DNA of 20,000 bases from an uncultured virus (IMG/VR IMGVR_UViG_3300031857_000106). Lineage: Duplodnaviria; Heunggongvirae; Uroviricota; Caudoviricetes. Where the stretch lies: positions 56,414 to 76,413 of IMG/VR virus record IMGVR_UViG_3300031857_000106. One strand, given 5' to 3'. A program made the translations under genes and the position numbers. Position 1 is the first letter of the stretch. The number at the start of each line of letters is the position of its first letter. The notes under the pieces were generated by a model that saw nothing but the letters and a program-made list of their open reading frames with translations, did no database searches and had not been told where the DNA came from. Positions 710 to 20,000 of this stretch are shown here, one piece after another.

Positions 710-1426
710 ATGAGAGAAATAAAAAGGAAGAGCTCGAAGCTCGTTGATTGGGAACTCTATGAAGCAATCCCACAAGTCTACGTAGTCCGAGTCGAAGACT
801 CTTACCAGAGAGCAATGCTCTTCCTCAGATACCAAGAACACTACGAATCTCCCTACAACAAGTTCCAAGGAAAGAGCTTCAACATTTTTGAGTTCATGGA
901 CCACTACCGAAAAGACCGAGGAGCCTGTGCTTTTCTTTATCCGAGCGAGTGGTCAGGGTACAACATACCGAGCAGCTCTCTTCTCAAATGTTACGTCGAG
1001 GTAAAAGACAACAACCCATACGATGAAGCAATGGGCGAAATCATCATCAAGATCTCAGAGGAGCTCCTCGCTGGAAAAGCTCCTGGGCAGAAAGCTCCTA
1101 AATTCTATCTCATCGGTGTCGACAAGATTGAAGGAGGAGTCATGGACCACGAAATTGCACACGCTCTCTTCTTCATCGATCCTCAATATAGAAAGAAGGC
1201 CACAGATCTCGTCTCAAAGCTCGCTCCTCGAAAAAGAGAGAAGATGGAGAAGATACTCCTCGGCCTCGGCTACCGCCCTCAAGTTCTAGTAGATGAGATT
1301 CAAGCTTTCATGAGCACTGGTCTTTGGCCTGGCATGGCAAAGGTCGTCACTGAAAAGGATTGTAAGCCCTTCATTGAAAATTGGCTTGACACCTCGTTAG
1401 CGTGTTCTCCCGATTTCAAGAGATAA
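710..1426 (+). CDS. hypothetical protein with HExxH zinc-metallopeptidase-like motif
   Basis: 238 aa; DHEIAH followed downstream by DEIQAF (possible third ligand). Confidence 0.6.
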   Translation: MREIKRKSSKLVDWELYEAIPQVYVVRVEDSYQRAMLFLRYQEHYESPYNKFQGKSFNIFEFMDHYRKDRGACAFLYPSEWSGYNIPSSSLLKCYVEVKDNNPYDEAMGEIIIKISEELLAGKAPGQKAPKFYLIGVDKIEGGVMDHEIAHALFFIDPQYRKKATDLVSKLAPRKREKMEKILLGLGYRPQVLVDEIQAFMSTGLWPGMAKVVTEKDCKPFIENWLDTSLACSPDFKR

Positions 1427-1460
1427 TTTTCTCTTCTCGTTTCATTTTTCTATATTTTAC
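1427..1460 (+). promoter_or_regulatory. Bacteroidota-like promoter TTTC-N19-TATATTTT
   Basis: Same spacing as copies at 4176, 9551 and 10988; ATG lies 11 nt after the start of the TA box. Confidence 0.6.
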
Positions 1461-1461
1461 T

Positions 1462-1764
1462 ATGAAAAGAATAATCATATTTTGTCTATTCCTCGTAGGA
1501 TGCGTCGACAGGAAGGACTTCGTCGAAGAACGCATATCATATAAGATCGACTCAGTGGCTTATCACCCTGTCGGTTTTCCTAGCGTGGCCAACCTCGATC
1601 CCCGTTGGATCGCCTACACTGAATTCGGACAATTTACCTATCACCATCCGGTCGAAGTCGGAGACAGCGTTGAGGTGATCATCATGACTCCAAAAAGAGA
1701 CACTATGGTCTTTGATCCGATATTAGAACACAGCAAAATAAAAGAAGATGACACCCTTAGATAG
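1462..1764 (+). CDS. putative lipoprotein
   Basis: MKRIIIFCLFLVG-C lipobox-type signal; start moved to ATG 1462. Confidence 0.65.
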   Translation: MKRIIIFCLFLVGCVDRKDFVEERISYKIDSVAYHPVGFPSVANLDPRWIAYTEFGQFTYHHPVEVGDSVEVIIMTPKRDTMVFDPILEHSKIKEDDTLR

Positions 1765-1978: not shown

Positions 1979-2126
1979 CTACTGGGACATCGACATCCTG
2001 ATAGAATACCGAAAGAGAAAAAAGAAAGAGATCGATCGGTTGGAAAAAACCCTCTGGTCTCGGATCTGGAACTGGAAGAAGATCAAGAAATTGAAAGAAG
2101 ATCTCGCAAAAATAAGATACGTATGA
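1953..2126 (+). CDS. small basic hypothetical protein
   Basis: Fills gap; ATGA-coupled to the next gene; start uncertain (1947/1953/1962). Confidence 0.55.
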   Translation: MNEMLEENSYWDIDILIEYRKRKKKEIDRLEKTLWSRIWNWKKIKKLKEDLAKIRYV

Positions 2127-2785
2127 GAATCAAGATTAAAAATAAAGAGAAGGTCTGGATCTTCAGCGATCCACACTACAACCACAAGAACATCTGCAGA
2201 GGAGTCACCAACTGGAGGATGACTGATGGTTCAGTTCCTGAAGCACAGACCCGAAATTTCAAAGATCTAGATCAGATGAACGCGGCCATCGTCAATAACA
2301 TCAACGATACGGTAGGCCAGCAAGACATCCTCATCTGTTTAGGAGATTGGTCCTTCGGAGGCTTTGAGAGCATCACAGAGTTCTGGGATCGTCTGATATG
2401 TAAGAACATATATCTCATACTTGGGAACCACGATCACCATATCGAGAATAACCGAGATGACATCGAAAAGCTCTTCTTGGAGGTCGGACACTACGCCACG
2501 CTGGAAATTGAAGACGGTTACAAGTTCAGGTTGATGCACTACCCGATCTCATCCTGGGACGGGTTGAGAAAAGGCGTGATCCACCTCCACGGCCACTGTC
2601 ACCTTCCGACTGATAAGAGGTTTGGAGAAGGAAAGAGGATGGACGTTGGCATGGACGGGCACCCAGAGTTCAGGCCCTATGATCTCAGAAGGGAAATCAT
2701 TCCTCTGATGAACAAGAGGCCTATCGGATCAGAGCTCGGTTCAGAGGACCACCACATGGACGACATTAAAGGAATTGTAGGATAA
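2123..2785 (+). CDS. calcineurin-like metallophosphoesterase
   Basis: Motifs SDPH, LGDW, GNHD, MHYP and HGHCH. Confidence 0.9.
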   Translation: MRIKIKNKEKVWIFSDPHYNHKNICRGVTNWRMTDGSVPEAQTRNFKDLDQMNAAIVNNINDTVGQQDILICLGDWSFGGFESITEFWDRLICKNIYLILGNHDHHIENNRDDIEKLFLEVGHYATLEIEDGYKFRLMHYPISSWDGLRKGVIHLHGHCHLPTDKRFGEGKRMDVGMDGHPEFRPYDLRREIIPLMNKRPIGSELGSEDHHMDDIKGIVG

Positions 2786-3582: not shown

Positions 3583-4175
3583 TCGATAACATTGAACTCA
3601 TCAAACCTCTCCTGAACTTTGACAGAGAAGGAGACTTCTACATGCTCTACGTTTTTAAGAGAAAGAAAGACCAACCTGAAGGAGAGAGGGACAACCACCA
3701 ATCAGTGAGGACGATCAAAACATATTGCATTGAATCAATAGAACATCTTGATCGGCGATACGAGGAGATCAAACAGCTCTGCGAAATGTTCAGAGCTCGA
3801 GCATACATTCACGTCCAAAAGCAAAACCACATGGACGTCTCTTTGGAGATGATGGTCTCTCTAGCTACAAGGATCAAGAACGGACAGACTAATCAGAAGG
3901 GCCTTTTTGATTCTGTTGTCGGCCAGATCAAGACTCAAGAAAAGCGTTGGATCGTAGACATAGACACTAAAGACATCGATTTGACAACTATTGTGTTGTG
4001 GATCGATACTCAGTGTAGGCCCGAAGGTTCTAAAGTCGAAGCTTTAATTCCAACCAAAAGCGGTTTTCACTTAATCACGAGAAGATTTGATGTGATGGAG
4101 TTTAAGAAGAGATACCCTGAGATAGATCTCCAGAAAAAGAATCCTACGTGTTTGTACGTACCTGATTCTCTCTAA
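3579..4175 (+). CDS. hypothetical protein with archaeo-eukaryotic primase (AEP)-like motifs
   Basis: WIVDID and PTKSGFHLI resemble AEP motifs I and II; ATGA-coupled start at 3579. Confidence 0.55.
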   Translation: MIDNIELIKPLLNFDREGDFYMLYVFKRKKDQPEGERDNHQSVRTIKTYCIESIEHLDRRYEEIKQLCEMFRARAYIHVQKQNHMDVSLEMMVSLATRIKNGQTNQKGLFDSVVGQIKTQEKRWIVDIDTKDIDLTTIVLWIDTQCRPEGSKVEALIPTKSGFHLITRRFDVMEFKKRYPEIDLQKKNPTCLYVPDSL

Positions 4176-4209
4176 TTTTCTGGTGTCATCGCCTTTAACT
4201 ATCTTTTAA
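4176..4209 (+). promoter_or_regulatory. Bacteroidota-like promoter TTTC-N19-TATCTTTT
   Basis: Conserved motif and spacing; ATG 11 nt after the start of the TA box. Confidence 0.6.
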
Positions 4210-4210
4210 T

Positions 4211-4375
4211 ATGAAAAAGAAGAAGACGATAAGGTGGAGACAGAAGCTGAACCGAGAAGCCGCGAAAGAACAGGGCTTCTACGACGGCAGGTTCAAACCG
4301 AGGATCGTCAAAGACAAGAAGAAGTGGAATTCTAAACGAGGCTCCCGTGGGTGGAGGCCTGAAAACGAAAACTAA
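4211..4375 (+). CDS. small very basic protein (54 aa), possible ArfA-like ribosome-rescue factor
   Basis: MKKKKTIRWRQKLNREAAKEQGFYDGRFKPRIVKDKKKWNSKRGSRGWRPENEN; directly after a promoter motif; TAATG-coupled to the next ORF. The function is speculative. Confidence 0.6.
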   Translation: MKKKKTIRWRQKLNREAAKEQGFYDGRFKPRIVKDKKKWNSKRGSRGWRPENEN

Positions 4376-5864: not shown

Positions 5865-5923
5865 GTGAGAGTTTCAAAATACATATACCAAGAGGGCAAC
5901 CTCTGCAAAATAAAAACATAACA

Positions 5924-6748
5924 ATGTTACTTAAGAACGGATCGAAGGGCACCGATGTGGCTGCTCTTCAGAAATTTCTAGGTCTGGCCGCTGATGGCAA
6001 TTTCGGCCCAGGCACGGAAAAAGCAGTAAAAGATTGGCAGGCGAAAAACGGCCTCACTGCCGATGGAATAGTAGGACCTGGTACTTGGGCTAAGATGGGT
6101 CTCGGTGCTGCAGCTCCCGTAGCTGAGTCTGCGCCAGTTCCACCATCAAACTTCAAATTGGAGAAGTTAAAAGGTCACATTCCTGATGCAGTGATCGCAC
6201 AGATCCCTGATACTGCAGCCAAGTTTGGCATCACCAACACTTTGAGACTTGCTCACTTCCTCGCTCAGTGTGGTCACGAATCTGGAGGCTTCAAAGCAGT
6301 TTCCGAGAATTTGAACTACTCTGCAGACGGTTTGAAGAAGATCTTCCCTAAGTATTTTCCAGGAAACTTGAACGAGTCTTACGCTAGAAACCCTGAGAAG
6401 ATCGCTAACAAAGTCTATTCTTCTAGAATGGGTAACGGCGATGAGAAATCTGGTGACGGCTTCAAATTCAGAGGTCGTGGTTACATCCAATTGACGGGCA
6501 AGGACAACTACACAAGGTTTGACAAGACTGTGGATGACGACATCCTCGCAAATCCTGATCTCGTGGCTACTAAGTATCCTCTTTCTTCAGCTGCATTCTT
6601 CTTCAACTCAAACGGGCTCTGGTCCATTTGTGATAAAGGAGCAGACGAAGCGACAGTGACGGCAGTGACCAAGAGAGTCAACGGCGGCACGATCGGTCTC
6701 GCTGACCGCATCAAGCACTTCAAAGAGTACTATCACCTACTCGCATGA
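5924..6748 (+). CDS. endolysin: N-terminal peptidoglycan-binding domain + GH19 (chitinase/lysozyme-like) domain
   Basis: LKNGSKG..V..LQ..LGL.ADG.FGPGTE.AVK.WQ..NGL.ADGIVGPGT (PG_binding_1); HFLAQCGHESGGF, FRGRGYIQLTG.DNY, TKRVNGG (GH19). Start moved to ATG 5924 because the ORF-track extension crosses the terminator. Confidence 0.92.
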   Translation: MLLKNGSKGTDVAALQKFLGLAADGNFGPGTEKAVKDWQAKNGLTADGIVGPGTWAKMGLGAAAPVAESAPVPPSNFKLEKLKGHIPDAVIAQIPDTAAKFGITNTLRLAHFLAQCGHESGGFKAVSENLNYSADGLKKIFPKYFPGNLNESYARNPEKIANKVYSSRMGNGDEKSGDGFKFRGRGYIQLTGKDNYTRFDKTVDDDILANPDLVATKYPLSSAAFFFNSNGLWSICDKGADEATVTAVTKRVNGGTIGLADRIKHFKEYYHLLA

Positions 6749-6756
6749 TAAATAAG

Positions 6757-6786
6757 AAAGAGCGGTAATAAACTTACCGCTCTTTT
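6757..6786 (+). terminator. stem-loop (terminator or 5' leader hairpin)
   Basis: AAAGAGCGGTAA-TAAAC-TTACCGCTCTTT-T, 12-bp perfect stem. Confidence 0.7.
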
Positions 6787-6800
6787 ACAATAAAAGAACT

Positions 6801-8357: not shown

Positions 8358-8857
8358 TGTTAGAAGATTTAGAAGAGACCGACTGGGACGAGGCGAGAAA
8401 GTATTTCAATTTGGCAATAGAGGCTCTAAACTGGAGCCTCGTATTGCAATGCTTCCAACAGACAAGCATGGTCTGGAGAGATCCGGACAGCGAGACCATT
8501 AGAATACCTAACCGAGAAGACCTTGAGAAGGAACTCGAAGACGTCTTCGCAGAGATGATGGAGGACGAGCTCACAGAATGCCAGATCGGTCCCTGGATAG
8601 TCAGGATCGAAAACGTGTTAGATCTCGGAACAGAAGTCGAGATCATTTTTACTCCGACTTCTTCTTACGTGATGGACTACGAAGGTTCTGAGAAGGAGAT
8701 GAGAAAGTGGATCAACAACCACGCAATCAAGGACGTGCTCGCTGAAGACCTCAAAGTTGCACTAAGACACTGTGAAGAGTCTGAAAATTACGAGTGGGCT
8801 CGTAAGATACAGAAAGAGATCAAAAGAAGAGAGAAGATCGATTCTAAGAAGAGTTAG
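8357..8857 (+). CDS. acidic hypothetical protein with C-terminal UVR (UvrB/C)-like helical motif
   Basis: ALRHCEESENYEWARKIQKEI resembles the UVR consensus A..E.YE.A..I...I. Confidence 0.65.
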   Translation: MLEDLEETDWDEARKYFNLAIEALNWSLVLQCFQQTSMVWRDPDSETIRIPNREDLEKELEDVFAEMMEDELTECQIGPWIVRIENVLDLGTEVEIIFTPTSSYVMDYEGSEKEMRKWINNHAIKDVLAEDLKVALRHCEESENYEWARKIQKEIKRREKIDSKKS

Positions 8858-10988: not shown

Positions 10989-11020
10989 TTTCTGCTTTCG
11001 TCCATTTTTTCTATCTTTTA
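10988..11020 (+). promoter_or_regulatory. Bacteroidota-like promoter TTTC-N19-TATCTTTT
   Basis: Conserved motif and spacing. Confidence 0.6.
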
Positions 11021-12313: not shown

Positions 12314-12513
12314 TGTTAGAAAGAACGAAAGGTACTATTTTCATCGGAGAGAGCTACGGAGTTCGAGTTACTGTTGAGTTAGACAGAGCTGATATTGAGC
12401 TTGAAGATGCTTTCAACGCGTTCAGAACTGTCCTCACAGGTCTCAGTTGGAACAACGAGCAGATAGAAAATTGGATAAAAACAAAAGCAGAAGAATTAAA
12501 AGAAAATGAATAA
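12313..12513 (+). CDS. hypothetical protein
   Basis: 66 aa, TAATG-coupled. Confidence 0.65.
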   Translation: MLERTKGTIFIGESYGVRVTVELDRADIELEDAFNAFRTVLTGLSWNNEQIENWIKTKAEELKENE

Positions 12514-12922
12514 AAAGCTCTACATAGTACGAGGTCTTCCAGGATCTGGAAAATCTACATTTGCTGAAGCCTTAGTCGGTTCAGATTTTTTAGTTTGTGA
12601 AGCTGACAAATTCTTTTATGACAGAGAAGGCAACTACAATTTCGATGGTTCAAAATTAAAAGAGGCTCACGAATCATGTAGAAGCCGAGTAGAGACCTAC
12701 ATGAAAGATTCTCTGGTGAACGACCAGTTCTATAGAAAGATAGCAGTCTCTAACACTTTTACTCGTGAATGGGAAATGCAGCCTTACGTAGATCTTGCGG
12801 AGAAGTACGGTTACCAAGTCTTCTCGGTGATAGTTGAAAACAGACACGGCGGAAAAAATGTTCATGGAGTTCCAGACGAAGTGATTGAAAAGATGAAAGA
12901 GAGATTTGAAATAAAATTATGA
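12506..12922 (+). CDS. P-loop kinase (polynucleotide-kinase/AAA_33-like)
   Basis: IVRGLPGSGKST, EAD, VSNTF, NVHGVP; coupled to the RNA ligase gene. Confidence 0.85.
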   Translation: MNKKLYIVRGLPGSGKSTFAEALVGSDFLVCEADKFFYDREGNYNFDGSKLKEAHESCRSRVETYMKDSLVNDQFYRKIAVSNTFTREWEMQPYVDLAEKYGYQVFSVIVENRHGGKNVHGVPDEVIEKMKERFEIKL

Positions 12923-13989
12923 AGTTTGATCTAGATATCCTGAACTCTTACTTAGAAAAAGGTCTCTTGGAAAAGAACGATCATCCGAACCTCCCTCTTT
13001 CTATTTGGAACTATTCTCGGACTTGTCAGTACTCTGGATCTTGGGATGAGATCACTCTCAAGTGTCGAGGACTGATCTTGGACAATGAGGGGAATGTCGT
13101 TGCTCGAGCATTCGACAAGTTCTTCAACTACGAGGAGGTCGTCGATCAGGTTCCTGTCAGAGGAGACTACGTTTATGTCCAAGAAAAACTGGACGGTTCT
13201 CTAGGAATCTTGTTCCACTATGCAGACGATTGGCACATGGCCACGAAGGGATCATTCACATCAGACCAAGCGAAAAGGGGAATGGAGATCATCAAGTCAA
13301 AATATCAGATGAGAACTTTTCTTCCTCAGATGACTTATCTCTGTGAGATCATCTACCCTGAGAACAGGATCGTGGTCGATTACAGAGGAAAGGAAAAAGT
13401 AGTTTTCATCGGAGTGACCTCAGAAGGAGAAGAGCTCCACTGGACCATGGCTCAATCGATCTTCATCGCAACAGGGATTGAGAAAAAAGACAGAGTAGAG
13501 ACTGAACAGCATTTCTCTTTCGGTCCTGAACTCTATCGTTCTCTAAAGGAAAAACAAGAGGGTAACCGAGAAGGCTACGTCCTCAGGTTCCAGCCGGGTA
13601 ATTTTAGAATGAAGATCAAGTTCGAAGAGTACGTAAGGCTTCACAGAATTTTGACAGGCTTTTCTAACAAAGACATCTGGGAGTACCTCAAAGACAAGAG
13701 AGACTTTAATAAGTTGTTGGACAGAGTTCCTGACGAATTTGACTCTTGGGTGAGAGAGACAGCTGAAGACTTGAATACGAAATATGAAAGCATCCAACGA
13801 GATTATGTTTCGCACTTCTTAAAAATTAGAGAAAAGACTCCTGACAGAAAATCTTTCGCTGAAGAGGCAAAGAAGTTCCCGCATTCTGGCATACTTTTCG
13901 CGATGTTAGATGGGAGAGAATATGACGAGCACATTTGGAAAATCATCAAACCTGATTATCAGAAACCCTTTTGGAAGAGAGAAGATTAG
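12919..13989 (+). CDS. T4 Rnl1-like RNA ligase
   Basis: CRGLI...ARAFDKFFN, EKLDGSLG (motif I), ATKGSF, CEII, REGYV (motif IV), KIKFEEY (motif V). Confidence 0.9.
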   Translation: MKFDLDILNSYLEKGLLEKNDHPNLPLSIWNYSRTCQYSGSWDEITLKCRGLILDNEGNVVARAFDKFFNYEEVVDQVPVRGDYVYVQEKLDGSLGILFHYADDWHMATKGSFTSDQAKRGMEIIKSKYQMRTFLPQMTYLCEIIYPENRIVVDYRGKEKVVFIGVTSEGEELHWTMAQSIFIATGIEKKDRVETEQHFSFGPELYRSLKEKQEGNREGYVLRFQPGNFRMKIKFEEYVRLHRILTGFSNKDIWEYLKDKRDFNKLLDRVPDEFDSWVRETAEDLNTKYESIQRDYVSHFLKIREKTPDRKSFAEEAKKFPHSGILFAMLDGREYDEHIWKIIKPDYQKPFWKRED

Positions 13990-14018: not shown

Positions 14019-15158
14019 ATGATGAACATTGACGAACAATATAAGAATCTCCTCAGAGACATTCTAGAAAACGGAAGGGCCAAAGAAGACCGAACTGGAA
14101 CTGGAACACTAAGCGTTTTCGGAAGACAGATCAGGCATCGAATGAGAGACGGCTTTCCTCTTCTCACCACGAAGAAGATGGCCTGGAAGTCAATAGTAAT
14201 AGAGCTCCTCTGGTTCTTGCAAGGCAGAACCGATCTCAGATATCTCCTCGCAAATGGTTGCCACATTTGGACCGGCGACGCTTACAAAAAATGGGACAAG
14301 AACTACGATTACGAACATCCACCCTTCAGCGGCCCCTATCCACCGAGGCTGACGCACAAAGAATTTGAGGAAAAGATCCTCACCGATCCCGACTTCGAGA
14401 AGATGTACGGAGAACTCGGACCGATCTACGGTAAGCAATGGAGAAAATGGGAAAGAAAAGCAACAAGAGAAGAAAAGATCGTTGATCCTGGAGTCTATAG
14501 CGTTTTCATTGACCAGGTTCAAATCCTGCTCGATGAACTCGTATCTAACCCTGATAGCAGACGTTTGATGGTCAACGCTTGGAATGTTGGAGAACTGGAT
14601 CAGATGACTCTACCGCCTTGCCACTACGGTTTCCAAGTCTACACTCGAGAGCTCACGCCTCAGGAAAGATACAGATACTGGTTCGATCACAATTACGAGA
14701 CAGGAATGGAATACAATGATGAACAGGTACCAGACTATGAAGACTCTTACTACTCACCTACTCCGAAGAGAGCAATCTCTCTCATGTGGAACCAGAGATC
14801 GGTGGATACTTTTCTAGGACTGCCTTTCAACATTGCTTCTTACGCTCTTCTCTTGAAAATCATCGCTGAGATCACCGGTTACATGGCTGACGAGCTCATC
14901 GGAAACTTGGGAGACACTCACCTCTACATGGATCACATAGATCAGGCAAAAGAACAGCTCGCTCGAGAGCCTTTTGGATCTCCTAGGTTGGAACTGAACA
15001 CTGAGTTCTGGTGCCCAGGCACTGAGGAAGGCTGTATCGGAACACCGGGAAGCTACACCAAAAACTTCGATGCTCTGGTCAAAAGCTTCGACGTAGAAGA
15101 CTTTCAGATATTTCATTACCGATACCATCCGGCGATCAAGGCGCCACTTTCAAATTGA
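14019..15158 (+). CDS. thyA: thymidylate synthase with insertions
   Basis: DRTGTGT, FPLLTTKK, ELLWFL, LGPIYGKQWR, SRRL, LPPCH, QRSVD.FLGLPFNIASY, DTHLY. Confidence 0.96.
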   Translation: MMNIDEQYKNLLRDILENGRAKEDRTGTGTLSVFGRQIRHRMRDGFPLLTTKKMAWKSIVIELLWFLQGRTDLRYLLANGCHIWTGDAYKKWDKNYDYEHPPFSGPYPPRLTHKEFEEKILTDPDFEKMYGELGPIYGKQWRKWERKATREEKIVDPGVYSVFIDQVQILLDELVSNPDSRRLMVNAWNVGELDQMTLPPCHYGFQVYTRELTPQERYRYWFDHNYETGMEYNDEQVPDYEDSYYSPTPKRAISLMWNQRSVDTFLGLPFNIASYALLLKIIAEITGYMADELIGNLGDTHLYMDHIDQAKEQLAREPFGSPRLELNTEFWCPGTEEGCIGTPGSYTKNFDALVKSFDVEDFQIFHYRYHPAIKAPLSN

Positions 15159-15159
15159 T

Positions 15160-15669
15160 ATGAAGAAATGGATATACTTAGACGATGTTAGAACTCCGGC
15201 ACAGGACATCCAGGTGTCCTGGGGAGGCTCTAGTCCCGTCAAAATAGAATGGATCGTGGTCAGAAGCTATCACGAGTTCGTGGATAAGATACTAGAGATC
15301 GGATTAGACTCAATCGACGGAATCTCATTCGATCACGATCTAGGACCCCAAGCGATGGCTGAGTACTACAGAAACGTGATGCCTAACTATACACTAGACT
15401 ACAGTAACATTGACGAGCTCACAGGCTATCATGCATGCAGATGGTTAGTCGATCACTACTACGAGAAGAATCCTCAGAGGTTAGAGATGGAGAGGAAAGA
15501 AAAGAAGGAAACCTCATTCAGTTTTCCAGTTCTCACCGTACACTCAGCGAACCCAGTCGGATCAGCCAACATCATGGGATATCTGAACAACTTTCTCAAA
15601 AATGAGGCTCAACCTCAATCTTGCATCCGTCACTTTTGGGAGCTCAGTCCCACATCAGAAACAATTTAA
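15160..15669 (+). CDS. cyclic-phosphate-processing receiver (cREC)-like domain protein
   Basis: YLDDVRTP, W.VVRSY.EF, ISFDHDLG, TGY...WL, VHSANPVG..NI. Confidence 0.75.
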   Translation: MKKWIYLDDVRTPAQDIQVSWGGSSPVKIEWIVVRSYHEFVDKILEIGLDSIDGISFDHDLGPQAMAEYYRNVMPNYTLDYSNIDELTGYHACRWLVDHYYEKNPQRLEMERKEKKETSFSFPVLTVHSANPVGSANIMGYLNNFLKNEAQPQSCIRHFWELSPTSETI

Positions 15670-15670
15670 C

Positions 15671-15868
15671 ATGGATTTGAAGCCTCAATATGAATGGATC
15701 ATTAAAGGGTCTCTCGAAGAAATCTTAGCTTACAAAAAACCTGATGAGGATCCTGTCTTCATCGATTCTGAAAAAGCTGTTCTCCAATGCATCGAAGTGA
15801 TGAACGCGATGAAGAACTCTCACAAAAATACTCAAAATCTCCTTGCCGACCTTTCACGGCACCTCTAA
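15671..15868 (+). CDS. hypothetical protein
   Basis: 65 aa from ATG 15671. Confidence 0.55.
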   Translation: MDLKPQYEWIIKGSLEEILAYKKPDEDPVFIDSEKAVLQCIEVMNAMKNSHKNTQNLLADLSRHL

Positions 15869-15915
15869 TCTGTTCTGTTTTTTTCTCATCTCTGAATAAA
15901 TAAACTAGAATTCAG

Positions 15916-15962
15916 AAAAATGAGATGCAAGAGAACGGAAAGCTCTTCTCATTTCTGGTTAT
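15916..15962 (+). repeat. 47-nt exact direct repeat, copy 1 (hairpin over start codon)
   Basis: aaaaatgagatgcaagagaacggaaagctcttctcatttctggttat, identical at 16442-16488. Confidence 0.95.
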
Positions 15963-16178
15963 CACTCCTCTTTTAATGGCTTTATCTAAGCCTGAAAGAG
16001 CTGCGATATATCGGACCACAGAGAAGTATATCGATACTATTAACACTAGTGTCAAAATTAGAGACAGTGTCCTCGACGCTGATATCTCTCGCCTTTCCCC
16101 TTCTATATCATCTTTCACAAGGACAGAAATGTTCTGAAAGAGTGCGTCTTGTTGATCGAAAAAATAAAAAGTAAAACT
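15925..16178 (+). pseudogene. internally deleted, frameshifted paralog of the 16451-16993 gene
   Basis: Shares MQENGKLFSFLVI; YIDTINTSVKI~YTVDRVKNSVQI; in another frame IFHKDRN~VFHKDKN and NVLKECVLLIEKI~NALKKTCISLVEKL. Confidence 0.7.
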
Positions 16179-16433
16179 ATGAAATGGTTCAAGTCGCTCT
16201 TCGATGACAACAACTCAATCAACGAAAAATCTGTAGTGGGATTTTCGGCTTTCGTGATGATGGTGATCACTCTAATTACTGACATCACTACCGGTGTAAT
16301 GGGTAGAGAAATGCCAATTCACGAATTTGTGTTCGATGGCTTCATGGTCATCGTCCTCGGATCTTTCGGTATCGCTTCTGTCGATAAGTTCATCAACAAA
16401 AGAAAAGGTAAGGACTCAGACACAGAAGAATAA
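16179..16433 (+). CDS. small two-TM membrane protein (holin-like topology)
   Basis: Two hydrophobic segments and a charged C-terminus; start at ATG 16179. Confidence 0.7.
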   Translation: MKWFKSLFDDNNSINEKSVVGFSAFVMMVITLITDITTGVMGREMPIHEFVFDGFMVIVLGSFGIASVDKFINKRKGKDSDTEE

Positions 16434-16441
16434 GAAAAAAC

Positions 16442-16488
16442 AAAAATGAGATGCAAGAGAACGGAAAGCTCTTCTCATTTCTGGTTAT
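16442..16488 (+). repeat. 47-nt exact direct repeat, copy 2
   Basis: Identical to 15916-15962. Confidence 0.95.
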
Positions 16489-16993
16489 ATCTTGTTTGTT
16501 CTTAATGTCTTTGACGCTAAAGACAGACAACGTTCGTAAACAACAGGACACCTATACAGTGGACAGAGTGAAAAACTCTGTCCAAATAGGTCCACTAGCC
16601 GGAAATAGAAATTTGGCCTTCGGGGTCAAGAACATCGCAGAAGAAGTCCTGCAAGAAAAAGGCTTCGAATTGGTAGAAGAATCTGACGCCACTCATCACC
16701 TGTTCATCGAGATCGTTTATTTCGATATCGAACAGGTGAAATCTAACGTTGGCGTATTCCACAAAGACAAGAACAATACCCTCATCAGAATGAAGGGAAC
16801 TCTCATCGTCAGCGGCAAGACTTTAAGAACTGCCGTTGCTGAAGAAGTCTCTTCTGAAATTTCTACGTCTACTTTTATCGTCGATGAAGGCGGCGGCTTC
16901 AACCAACAAGCTGCTAGTAATGCTCTGAAAAAGACGTGCATCTCACTCGTAGAAAAACTCACAAATCCAGCCCCAACAAAAAACAAAAAATAA
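16451..16993 (+). CDS. exported protein, possible CsgG/TolB-N-like alpha/beta fold
   Basis: N-terminal hydrophobic signal; helix-LQEKGFELV-strands-ALKK helix pattern parallels the 17595 protein. Confidence 0.65.
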   Translation: MQENGKLFSFLVISCLFLMSLTLKTDNVRKQQDTYTVDRVKNSVQIGPLAGNRNLAFGVKNIAEEVLQEKGFELVEESDATHHLFIEIVYFDIEQVKSNVGVFHKDKNNTLIRMKGTLIVSGKTLRTAVAEEVSSEISTSTFIVDEGGGFNQQAASNALKKTCISLVEKLTNPAPTKNKK

Positions 16994-16995
16994 CA

Positions 16996-17343
16996 ATGAA
17001 AAAACTCACAAATTTCTTCGGAGGAAAAAGTGAATATGTTCCAGTAGAAGACAAGAACAGATTCTATTTCATGCTCCAACAAATGCAGTCTAACAGATGG
17101 AAGATCACCGCCATCGTGTTAGGTCTTTTCACCCTGATCATCGTAGGCATCAACGCAGGCGTTTTCTTAGGCGCATCTATCGGTGAAGATTGGAAAGAAA
17201 TGCTCCTCATCCTCCTCGGTGCTTTCGTCGGTAACTTGAACAAGGTGGTCGACTATTGGTTCAATTCAGAGGACAGAGACAAGATGTTGATCCAAAAAGT
17301 TGACGAAGAAGACGGTGTCTCTCTTTCTAACACAAACGAATAA
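16996..17343 (+). CDS. two-TM membrane protein
   Basis: ITAIVLGLFTLIIVGINAGVFL and MLLILLGAFVG..VVDYWF; start at ATG 16996. Confidence 0.75.
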   Translation: MKKLTNFFGGKSEYVPVEDKNRFYFMLQQMQSNRWKITAIVLGLFTLIIVGINAGVFLGASIGEDWKEMLLILLGAFVGNLNKVVDYWFNSEDRDKMLIQKVDEEDGVSLSNTNE

Positions 17344-17362
17344 AGAAAAATAAAATCACGTT

Positions 17363-17590
17363 ATGAAAAAATTTACAGAATTCTTTGATGAGAAGATATT
17401 CCCATCAATGCTTTACCTCAGCGGTTCTTTCATCATCTTCGCTTTCATCACTCAAGTCACTATGGCTGTCATGACTGCGGTAGTCCCAGAAGATAGAATG
17501 CTCAACATCTCAAATAAGATGTCTTGGAAGTTTGACGGTACTTTTAAGAATCATCCAGACAACATCTTTTACGAGGGAGAAATAAAGTAA
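17363..17590 (+). CDS. small single-TM membrane protein
   Basis: 75 aa with one long hydrophobic segment. Confidence 0.65.
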   Translation: MKKFTEFFDEKIFPSMLYLSGSFIIFAFITQVTMAVMTAVVPEDRMLNISNKMSWKFDGTFKNHPDNIFYEGEIK

Positions 17591-17594
17591 AGCA

Positions 17595-18314
17595 ATGAAA
17601 AGAATCGTAGGCATAGTAGCGCTGAGCTTGCTGAGTTTTGCAGCAAGCTCTCAAACCATCGGAACTACCAAAACCGAAGACTTCAAAGCTGACTTTGAAA
17701 AGAAGAAAGACATTTCGGCTTACCTCGATTATGAAGGTCCACAGATCCCTATTCAAATCTTGAAAGCTGGGATATCTGAAGAAGTGTACGAAATGTACCC
17801 TGAGTTGAAAGAGAAGAGAGTAGGTCTCGGAGTTGCGAACATCTCTATGGAATACTTAGAGAACTTGAACCGTTTCAAGTTTACTGAAGACAAGACAGAG
17901 ATCAAAAACAGAATGGTGAAGCAGTTTCAAGCGAGCCAGGCCGGCATCTCTGAGAATAAGTTGGACGGCCGCGGAAAGATCAACCTCGCAGAATACTTTG
18001 TGACCATTGAAGTCTACGACTATTCAATCTCTGAGGACGAGACTATCAACCTCAAAGACGGCGTCAAAGACAACTTGGTCACACGTCTCGGTCTTCAAGT
18101 ACGTTTCACTAACGCTGAAACCGGAGTAGTTTTCGGAGCTTCAGGGTTAGGTGAAGCAAAGACTACCAGAGAACTCACTCTCTTGAGCGATGCAACTATA
18201 GATCCGATTAAGTTCAACCAATCTACTATCAGCATCGCGACAAAAAAGGCTCTCGACATTGCTTGTGCCAACATTCTGGATAGAATGATCAAGAAAGGCA
18301 TCTTTCAAAAATAA
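17595..18314 (+). CDS. CsgG/HfaB-family (curli assembly/transport-like) exported protein
   Basis: Signal peptide ending ASS-Q; GLGVANI..E.L...NRF...E, A.YFV...VYDY, LQVRF.NAETG.V, KKALD.A pattern typical of CsgG-like proteins. Confidence 0.7.
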   Translation: MKRIVGIVALSLLSFAASSQTIGTTKTEDFKADFEKKKDISAYLDYEGPQIPIQILKAGISEEVYEMYPELKEKRVGLGVANISMEYLENLNRFKFTEDKTEIKNRMVKQFQASQAGISENKLDGRGKINLAEYFVTIEVYDYSISEDETINLKDGVKDNLVTRLGLQVRFTNAETGVVFGASGLGEAKTTRELTLLSDATIDPIKFNQSTISIATKKALDIACANILDRMIKKGIFQK

Positions 18315-18322
18315 AGAGAAAA

Positions 18323-18928
18323 ATGAATCTCAGAAGATGGGGATTGTTTGCTGTTTCTCTGCTTCTTCTTTTTGCTAGCTGCAAAGAGAAGAAAAAAGAC
18401 GTCCCGATCTCGGTTCCGCAAGAAATGGTGCACGACACACTTGCAGTTCACGATACTATTCTCGTTGCTGAACCCTATCCCGTCCCTTACGAAACAGTAA
18501 GGGACAGCATAGTTTATAGAGACGTGGCAATCAACGTGGATACGTTGGCAATACTCAAAATGTTCGATCAAAAGAATGTCTATAGAGACACTCTCAAATT
18601 TGAGTTCGGTTACTTGCTGGTCACTGACACTATCAAAGGCGGCTCCATCGTATCGAGAAATTATCTAGCCAAAGTGAAGCCGCCGGCAGCAAAAGTCAGA
18701 ATTGAGGAAGCTGAGCCGACTAACAAATACTACATAGGAACTAATTTCGGCTTTGACAGACCGAACTATGTGTATTCGTTGGGGACTTCTTTCTTATATG
18801 AAACAAAAAATGACAAGATCTACCAAATTGGATTGGGTGTGAGAAACCGAGTGCTTGACGGAAACACCGGAGTCTTTGAACCTTTCATTCAAGGCGGAGT
18901 ATATTGGAAACTAAAAAACAAAAAATGA
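18323..18928 (+). CDS. putative lipoprotein with DT/DS-rich stalk and beta-rich C-terminus
   Basis: LLLFAS-C lipobox; repeated VHDT/VRDS/RDT; C-terminal amphipathic strands ending GGVYWKL. Confidence 0.7.
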   Translation: MNLRRWGLFAVSLLLLFASCKEKKKDVPISVPQEMVHDTLAVHDTILVAEPYPVPYETVRDSIVYRDVAINVDTLAILKMFDQKNVYRDTLKFEFGYLLVTDTIKGGSIVSRNYLAKVKPPAAKVRIEEAEPTNKYYIGTNFGFDRPNYVYSLGTSFLYETKNDKIYQIGLGVRNRVLDGNTGVFEPFIQGGVYWKLKNKK

Positions 18929-20000
18929 AAAAACACATCGCGGCCACGTTAGGACTCGCATTGACAGCTTTTTCGAGCTTTGCTCAGCTCTCGATCAATC
19001 GATCGATAGTTCAGCAACCGCCTTACAAAGTAGGCGATACTCTCACCGTAAACTATACTGTGACGAGAGGAACTACCACACCTCGTTATTTCTGGCTTAG
19101 ATACCAGCACAATAACCAAGCTCTGTCTCTGGTGAACAACAGCACCACTTTTACGCAAGGCAATCAGACTCAGACGTTTTTCACGAAATGGGACAACTAT
19201 TCTTTCACGCCTTCTAACGCCGGATCTAATCTCTATGCTCAATATACCAGCACTCCTTGGAACTATGTTGCAAATTCAAGCTGGAACGTAGGACAGTTGA
19301 CTGTACAGAGAGTGGATGCTTCTATCGATGGCACATTAGCCACTCAGAAATTTGTGCTAGGCGACGTTTCAGACTACTCAAACATCCACAAATTAGATCT
19401 TGCTTATTCAGTAGACGCTGCAGGTGCTTACATCTCTCCTATCAATACCACCAGCGCTTCTTTGTCGATCGCCAACAATAATGTCAGTGGTAACACTGCC
19501 GGTCTTTCCATCAGAATCACATATCCATCTAACGATACTTCTATCACAAACCTGAAAGCTGTCGCTTACCCTGTAGTGAACGGAGCGCCTGTGACTTCTG
19601 GACAACCTCTAGAAACAAAAACATTTAACGCTCAAGGTCTAGCAGTTTTCACAACTTTGAAAGTAGGAGACACTGTAGCAGTGTACGTAGTACCTACGAT
19701 CAGTCAGACTTATTTGAATAATATAGTCACCGTGACAGATGCCTACAAAGCATTCTTAGCAGTTTCTAACGTAGGTCTTAACGGAGGCTCTACATTTTTC
19801 ACGTATCCAGTTCTGGAAAATAAGATTGGTAACGTTACCATCGGAGATACTACTTTCACGGTGGACGATTCTTACTATTCTTTCGCTTATGTGATGGGAC
19901 AGAACGTCTCAGCCAACGCATCGATCCCGACTTCGACTTCATCTTCCATTAAGATGCTTTCTTCGAAGAGATCAACATGGGCCAGTGGAATACAGAACAA
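18925..20000 (+). CDS. large secreted protein with cohesin-like and dockerin-like segments (3' truncated; absent from ORF track)
   Basis: Open from ATG 18925 to the window end: MKKHIAATLGLALTAFSSFA-Q signal, YKVGDTLTVNY, T/S/N-rich beta content, NNIVTVTDAYKAF and GNVTIGDTTFTVDDSYYSFAYVMG. Confidence 0.75.
   Translation, partial: MKKHIAATLGLALTAFSSFAQLSINRSIVQQPPYKVGDTLTVNYTVTRGTTTPRYFWLRYQHNNQALSLVNNSTTFTQGNQTQTFFTKWDNYSFTPSNAGSNLYAQYTSTPWNYVANSSWNVGQLTVQRVDASIDGTLATQKFVLGDVSDYSNIHKLDLAYSVDAAGAYISPINTTSASLSIANNNVSGNTAGLSIRITYPSNDTSITNLKAVAYPVVNGAPVTSGQPLETKTFNAQGLAVFTTLKVGDTVAVYVVPTISQTYLNNIVTVTDAYKAFLAVSNVGLNGGSTFFTYPVLENKIGNVTIGDTTFTVDDSYYSFAYVMGQNVSANASIPTSTSSSIKMLSSKRSTWASGIQN

Follow-up and report, generated by a model that had tools for sequence, protein, structure and literature searches.

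The locus and its relatives

The DNA analysed here, a 20,000-nt stretch hereafter called the window, is the terminal part of a 76,413-nt viral contig with a completeness estimate of 26%. The contig carries tail-fibre genes as well as genes for RNA ligases, a TROVE-like RNA-binding protein, an endolysin and thymidylate synthase. Between a 65-amino-acid (aa) gene ending at 15868 and an operon for exported or membrane proteins starting at 16179 lies a segment (15913-16145, + strand) that an earlier, sequence-only reading had described as the relic of a collapsed gene. The first intact gene behind it (16179..16433, + strand; dN/dS 0.04) specifies an 84-aa hydrophobic protein without a family in Pfam, PHROG and NCBIfam. 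An intact gene for a 180-aa YajG/Lipoprotein_16-like exported protein occupies 16451..16993 (+ strand); the protein has 1270 homologues and matches Pfam PF03923 at E 1.6e-4, under the curated cut-off, and the 5′ coding region of its gene shows the same RNA structure as the relic.

Shine-Dalgarno (SD)-like cores are found in only 3 of 80 genes of the contig, and homologous operons encode proteins with T9SS tails (two of the three large proteins tested, those from loci L026 and L028 and not that from L003). Together, these traits make it probable that the host is a Bacteroidota bacterium; the phage is probably a large one. Stop-codon recoding need not be invoked, as table 11 covers 93% of the + strand. 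Five tRNAs were the whole yield of an Rfam search of the contig. Neither a protein nor a DNA match was found in annotated phages, and none in GTDB genomes. The sequence itself is no assembly artefact, since contigs from three other DNA runs confirm it: X12 (15915-16164) without differences from the relic, X16 (15933-16163) with one and X17 (16023-16259) with four. Metatranscriptome contigs (X18, X19) cover 16204-16354, 16448-16640 and 16337-16546, and the relic appears in none of the three RNA runs; as these contigs are of low depth, the coverage may stem from DNA and the relic's absence shows nothing.

A metagenome scan recovered ten loci. Three (L021, L022, L030) represent the same genome as the window; one (L023) carries a diverged relic in an identical gene arrangement; three (L024, L025, L026) have an intact gene straight after a TAAATA box and no relic; and three (L027-L029) contain distant homologues without the element. 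Full relic haplotypes number only two, and a leader profile search returned no further family members in 113 loci. The 5′ part of the relic includes an exact 47-nt repeat (15916-15962 = 16442-16488, both on the + strand), the second copy of which, at the start of the intact paralogue, lacks the promoter box and the upstream arm described below. Both relics align better with the L026 gene than with the L024 gene or the window's own intact gene (scores 226/190/178 and 218/184/164), and at the protein level the identity is 58% (48 aa) with the L026-type protein and 41% with the neighbour. These comparisons show the parent to be an L026-type gene and not the intact gene 526 nt downstream, so that the locus is a tandem of two homologous units, the first of which has decayed.

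Relative to a gene of the parental type, the first ~150 nt of the relic are colinear and the other ~400 nt have shrunk to ~100 through several deletions with uncertain borders. The collapsed alignment along the homologous gene and the 47-nt repeat bear out the proposal of a gene relic; with colinear homology, deletions and loss of protein constraint, the segment qualifies, as judged from sequence, as a pseudogene of a YajG/Lipoprotein_16-like phage family. Its collapsed layout is common to both relics, indicating that the collapse was complete before they split. Since then, the two have come to differ by 38 substitutions (28 of them transitions) and three 3-nt indels, to be compared with intergenic indels of 4 and 1 nt in the same pair of loci. 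All 38 differing sites lie in the middle, the ends being invariant over 58 nt (5′) and 43 nt (3′). The 3′ block, 16122-16164, adjoins a 68-nt identical tract of the next gene and could be a recent recombination patch.

Inherited and new structure in the relic RNA

Folding of 15913-16145 yields -67.8 kcal/mol (z -4.45) on the + strand, an energy reached by none of 200 shuffled sequences; the - strand gives z -1.98. The expectation that folding would beat shuffled controls was therefore borne out. When the window was scanned in 150-nt tiles, z fell below -3 in 13 of 199, including the tiles at 15801 and 15901, and the lowest value (z -5.23, tile 16501) was obtained within the intact paralogue. 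Likewise, the first 200 nt of three out of four intact genes have z between -4.5 and -4.75 (-4.48 for the 16451 gene), the fourth, from L026, standing at -1.18.

Six consecutive hairpins had been proposed by eye. Five of these (hairpins 1, 2, 4, 5 and 6) form in local folding (span at most 60 nt), with mean pair probabilities of 0.72-0.97, and recur in the diverged relative. Hairpin 3 (16005-16032) was rejected, its pair probability being 0.10 in local folding and its z -0.03 when taken alone, and hairpin 1 drops to probability 0 in the unrestricted fold, where a longer stem takes its place. The region is thus not simply a row of six hairpins. The long stem (15945..16026, + strand) includes hairpin 2, and its outer helix (15945-15950/16021-16026) captures the 3′ arm of hairpin 1; it is kept in both relics, with pairing probabilities of 0.85 and 0.91 in full-length folds, as part of one compact global fold common to the two. 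Hairpin 4 (16033..16053, + strand) shows compensatory changes: among six copies, three of its eight pairs are changed on both sides, including one that differs in this way between the two relics. In hairpin 5 (16060..16089, + strand), the inner stem can be traced to the parent gene, being visible by eye in the L026 sequence, and the outer stem arose after the deletions; position 16068 varies (T, C or A), the variants coming from single low-depth contigs.

Hairpin 6 (16111..16141, + strand; z -2.93) has a GAAA loop, contains the stop codon of the reading frame considered below and is specific to the relics. Its arms derive from FHKD and NALKK codons that are far apart in the intact gene, which bears out the view that it spans a deletion junction and postdates the collapse. 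A sequence pattern said to be shared by hairpins 2 and 6 is present in the window's lineage and does not extend to L023 or the outgroup L026, both of which read TGACAGAG in hairpin 2; its single occurrence in the window compares with an expectation of 0.79.

Covariation across relatives was assessed over 27 pairs in six copies. Paired cells amounted to 95%, and four pairs were changed on both sides; slid structures gave 40-57%, a control to be read with the relatedness of the copies and the derivation of the structure from the same sequences in mind. Intact homologous genes already possess hairpins 1, 2 and 4 and the inner hairpin-5 stem, with compensatory changes. Folding models and covariation together show that hairpins 1, 2 and 4 and the long stem were inherited. 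The only novelties postdating the collapse are hairpin 6 and the outer stem of hairpin 5, both kept in the two relic lineages. This leaves little of the notion that a dead paralogue was reshaped into a regulatory RNA, as most of the structure predates the collapse. Pairing between the pyrimidine linker 16090-16110 and the loop of hairpin 1 did not exceed that of shuffles (494 and 979 of 2000), the + strand of 15000-17500 contains no terminator pattern, and Rfam 15 returned no match to the relic at gathering score, only sub-threshold ones.

Elsewhere in the window, the coding region of the intact gene is strongly structured at 16488-16650, where a perfect 10-bp hairpin with a GAAAA loop covaries in relatives. 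Other low-z tiles in coding regions are at 5901-6050, 8401-8550, 18001-18550 and 18901-19150.

The start codon: an invariant hairpin and a predicted switch

Hairpin 1 (15921..15954, + strand) presents the AUG of the relic, at 15925, in a 4-nt bulge. Its 34 nt are identical in all six aligned copies, one of which belongs to a gene at 60% protein identity. The encoded peptide, MQENGKLF, is invariant in the 14 closest proteins and found in 25 of the 26 additional cluster members whose N-terminus is complete (eight others are called from an internal start); it is missing in the next-closest P0014-P0016 and in 14 more distant proteins, among the 30 of 1270 homologues aligned. The signal region outside this peptide varies among homologues. 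Elsewhere in the gene, the window and L026 use the same codon at only 42 of 93 conserved residues, and the chance of identity at nine degenerate codons is, by an arithmetic estimate, ~0.001. The identity of the 34 nt where synonymous codons otherwise vary, and the fixity of MQENGKLF next to a variable signal region, place the constraint on the nucleic acid. This invariance suggests an additional trans-acting partner, in which case the element would offer a compact, testable handle on a trans-acting factor of a widespread, unstudied phage envelope cassette. Translational operators of T4 (the gene 43 hairpin, RegA sites), as described in passages of PMC3014915, are hairpins near the start with loop bases conserved between phages. 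The relic resembles them in having a conserved hairpin near the start and departs from them in that 34 nt are invariant over codons 1-10 and the binding partner is hypothetical.

Just before the region lies an ATAAATA box (15896..15902, + strand), which the sequence-only reading had rightly located and which is likely a T4-type late promoter. The box reads GATAAATA in L023 and L026. The motif occurs 11 times in the 76-kb contig, 10 times on the + strand and 6 times at most 80 nt upstream of an ORF start. Two helices and an open reading frame had escaped the sequence-only reading, the key regulatory helix lying partly outside the segment then delimited. In an RNA reading through from upstream, an anti-start arm at 15869..15897 (+ strand) is predicted to pair with 15910-15939, placing the ATAAATA box at the 3′ end of the arm and in the loop. 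The fold has an MFE of -23.1, matched by 2 of 200 shuffles, and the duplex between the relic's own arm and own start is the strongest among 92 genes. Analogous arms, with other sequences and the same pairing, are found in L023 and L024; the arms of the two relics thus differ in sequence and both pair with the start. The L026 arm is weaker (duplex -11.1 versus a background mean of -11.6; fold z -1.07). In the two internal copies that lack a promoter box, the arm is missing as well, with duplex values of -5.0 and -10.2 versus -23.9, -23.1 and -20.6.

We calculated the cost of opening positions -8 to +12 in the four promoter-bearing copies. In the read-through RNA, this amounts to 14.2, 13.3, 20.2 and 10.9 kcal/mol, values reached by shuffled-arm controls in 3, 5, 0 and 0 of 150 cases. 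In a late-type RNA extending to +130, the cost is 2.7, 5.0, 3.8 and 2.7 kcal/mol, values as low being reached in 0, 14, 5 and 2 of 150 cases when the downstream part is shuffled. The late-type cost varies with RNA length, from 8-11 kcal/mol early on to 2.7-5.0 at 110-160 nt and 6.6-9.0 for the full-length relic, a return that may leave the relic poorly translated even late. In the relics, the drop coincides with formation of the helix 15945-15950/16021-16026. A second ATAAATA-headed gene of the contig shows the same predicted switch (1.5 versus 13.0 kcal/mol), with the box in the loop; in four of the six ATAAATA-headed genes the switch was not seen.

Such an arrangement recalls T4 genes e, soc, 49 and I-TevI, whose long early transcripts, in the passages of PMC3014915 concerned, are silenced by a helix the 5′ arm of which is missing from late-promoter transcripts. 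As in the gene e type so described, an upstream arm pairs with the start in the read-through RNA (in folding, all four copies beat shuffled arms, L026 being the weakest), a TATAAATA-like box lies within the structure and the target is an envelope gene; the T4 parallel extends to the read-through RNA, which here comes from a thymidylate-synthase block. Unlike the gene e type, the relic has no Shine-Dalgarno sequence, its short form keeps a second, invariant AUG hairpin and a reopening downstream helix, and the switch sits on a dead gene heading an operon. According to PMC6847099, structure tunes initiation in Bacteroidota, and in Flavobacterium it does so instead of SD pairing. In searches of the literature outside subscription journals, none of the papers listed dealt with the start element, GATAAATA or the envelope cassette.

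Two individual sites with such boxes were noted. At L038:73-124 (contig 73-124), a textbook hairpin of the T4 gene e type has GATAAATA in its loop and the AUG of an unannotated 175-aa gene in its 3′ arm. At window 6748-6790, between the endolysin gene and a 74-aa gene, a GATAAATA box is followed immediately by a 12-bp hairpin and a T-run; by its sequence, this is a candidate interleaved terminator and late promoter.

A probably retained leader and the alternatives

From the AUG in hairpin 1, a frame of 70 codons (15925..16137, + strand; 71 codons in L023) runs into the stop within hairpin 6, its first ~45 codons being in the frame of the parent. This candidate leader ORF is called as a gene on 11 contigs, one of them 216 kb long. 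All three of its indels are of 3 nt, and with substitutions alone a frame that stays open is to be expected (P 0.60). In the one pair available, its dN/dS is 1.35-1.40, versus 0.04-0.26 in eight neighbouring genes. A programmed frameshift into the 16179 gene was considered and dismissed, as no conserved slippery site was seen by eye.

With middling confidence and, as regards function, on the basis of folding models, we interpret the relic as an inherited promoter-choice switch that has probably been kept as the leader of the envelope operon. The suggestion of a structured leader in that place is supported, and the element is more likely a device that continues to time the downstream genes than an RNA gene of recent origin. 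Read-through RNA from the thymidylate-synthase block would carry the arm 15869-15897, which would pair with 15910-15939 and bury the start codon at a cost of ~11-20 kcal/mol. RNA begun just after ATAAATA would lack the arm and hairpin 1 would fold first; from ~110 nt onwards, the helix 15945-15950/16021-16026 would compete with it, lowering the cost of opening the start to ~3-5 kcal/mol. In a host that dispenses with SD pairing, exposure of the start would decide ribosome loading. Translation of the 70 codons, whatever the product, would then protect the downstream genes or couple to them, and untranslated early RNA would be cut short or degraded. If translation rather than the product is needed, an open frame free of amino-acid constraint finds an explanation. 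In bacterial leader ORFs and uORFs, too, translation itself and not the product may matter, through coupling or polarity control; the relic differs from these in that its frame derives from a collapsed paralogue, spans 70 codons and has no attenuator terminator that we could find.

We read the invariant ends, the changed arms that still pair, the frame-preserving indels and the two new helices kept in both lineages as support for continued use. The same relic might instead be a neutral leftover whose promoter was retained while the rest decays, the hairpins being the parent's residue and hairpin 6 a product of chance. This is possible, if doubtful: a dN/dS of ~1.4, a position 16068 in three states and 38 substitutions in a variable portion of ~165 nt, close to the synonymous rate of two flanking genes (0.23-0.24), speak in its favour, and simulated neutral decay reaches the observed energies. 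Starting from a best-case, well-folded ancestor, such decay accounts for the middle hairpins with a joint P of 0.12, or 0.05 with outgroup polarisation. We discounted a broken-pair test (5 versus 11 expected, P 0.004), as half of the changes are on the tested sequence's own branch and inflate the null. Harder to reconcile with a leftover are the 58 nt unchanged at the 5′ end in spite of no protein need (at a uniform rate, 51 unchanged nt have a probability of ~1e-6), a collapse that stopped before the lineages split and was followed by 3-nt indels only, and two arms of different sequence that both still pair with the start. A discrete ncRNA of ~230-250 nt, transcribed from the late promoter and acting in trans, for instance as a decoy for any factor that recognises the invariant hairpin, comes nearest to the idea originally put forward. 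It would suit the compact fold common to both relics and the retention of hairpin 6 and the outer stem of hairpin 5, and the stable GNRA hairpin could mark a processed 3′ end; it is nonetheless quite improbable, given that neither a + strand terminator in 15000-17500 nor an Rfam match was found, that frame-preserving indels are unexpected in a pure RNA and that the structure is mostly older than the relic.

The dN/dS contrast with the eight neighbouring genes argues as well against a functional 70-aa product, such as a small exported or membrane peptide inhibiting the intact protein as a truncated version of it, and no homologue of 38-123 aa besides the peptide itself turned up among 5.8 billion proteins. 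We hold this explanation to be very improbable despite a frame open in both relics, the identity of the last four residues and stop, a still hydrophobic N-terminus and the gene call on 11 contigs. Least credible is that the 47-nt repeat is a recombination site, an attC-like start module with the 526-nt unit as an inserted cassette. The direct repeat is indeed exact; however, its two copies are the only ones in the contig and both stand at starts of one protein family, RYYYAAC/GTTRRRY cores are absent, the DNA folds are weak, and the back-translated start occurs in 16 viral loci with the hairpin only in this genome. As the contig is only 26% complete, an integrase could be encoded elsewhere in the genome.

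Returning to the inherited switch, we regard the relic element as a real feature, a piece of T4-like control logic surviving on a dead gene, and do not claim for it the status of a new ncRNA. On this interpretation, a leader would have been born without invention: the gene dies, most of its distal part is deleted and the RNA switch at its start is retained. Promoter-choice control of the T4 type would extend to a large, SD-free phage probably infecting Bacteroidota, with the invariant AUG hairpin and the competing downstream helix as an added layer.

A possible antisense RNA and neighbouring RNA-related genes

An antisense RNA of the phage, encoded 18 kb upstream, might target the invariant start hairpin; we consider this proposal, drawn from base complementarity, unlikely. 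The candidate site, contig 54044-54064 (L040:15044-15064), would pair perfectly over 16 positions and add a further 5 pairs across the AUG, at -36.5 kcal/mol; the match comprises 21 nt with wobbles and one mismatch, and lies within a stem closed by a U-rich tail. Its first 16 nt (54044-54059) constitute the sole perfect long-range inverted match of at least 16 nt on the + strand of the contig, with the proviso that about one such match is expected by estimate in 76 kb and that the site was found after the fact. The match to the start element is the best among 92 gene starts, its score being reached by 2 of 1000 shuffles. The 16-mer occurs in 39 viral loci, none related except two of this genome. 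A 21-nt match to the element at L035:1480-1520 (- strand; also in L088), across the stop of an HNH-like ORF in an unrelated phage, was treated as chance.

The candidate site is in non-coding DNA directly behind two Y-RNA-like units and ahead of an RNA ligase and the Ro60/TROVE gene. Tandem units of this kind, two or three in number, precede TROVE in five related phages (G000 contig 53750-54105, equivalent to L040:14750-15105, and L042-L045). Their YYGAWGCGG...TAC(T/A)TC motif is conserved and their stems covary (8 of 13 pairs in six units); no Rfam family, YrlA included, matches them. The other four TROVE loci have the units without the antisense site, their own, partial records offering perfect complements of 13-15 nt at best; one of the five TROVE records has a YajG-like gene, a distant one, and the 16-mer is absent there even at two mismatches. 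Passages of PMC4201824 describe bacterial and phage Y RNAs beside Ro60/TROVE with a GNCGAA-type motif. The present units resemble these in their repetition upstream of TROVE, a 5′ YCGAAG-like motif and paired ends; unlike them, they would include antisense targeting of an mRNA start, which is not described in those passages. If the proposal were true, the dead gene would be kept because it carries an antisense target at the head of the operon, the pseudogene acting as a docking site, and a late envelope mRNA would be silenced or degraded under the guidance of a Ro60-associated RNA locus.

A probable RNA end-healing and repair gene cluster is distributed over contig 54319-57006 and window 2123-2785, 12506-13989 and 15160-15669. 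Its members include two RNA ligases, TROVE and a cyclic-phosphate-processing receiver domain, along with a phosphoesterase-like and a kinase-like ORF recognised by eye. Near gene starts, a recurrent upstream motif ending in (C/A)TAT(C/A)TTTTA was observed at window 1424-1468, 4173-4217 and 10989-11020 and at contig 54085-54125. The motif bears a loose resemblance to the Bacteroidota -7 element and, by its sequence and placement, is a probable early or middle promoter.
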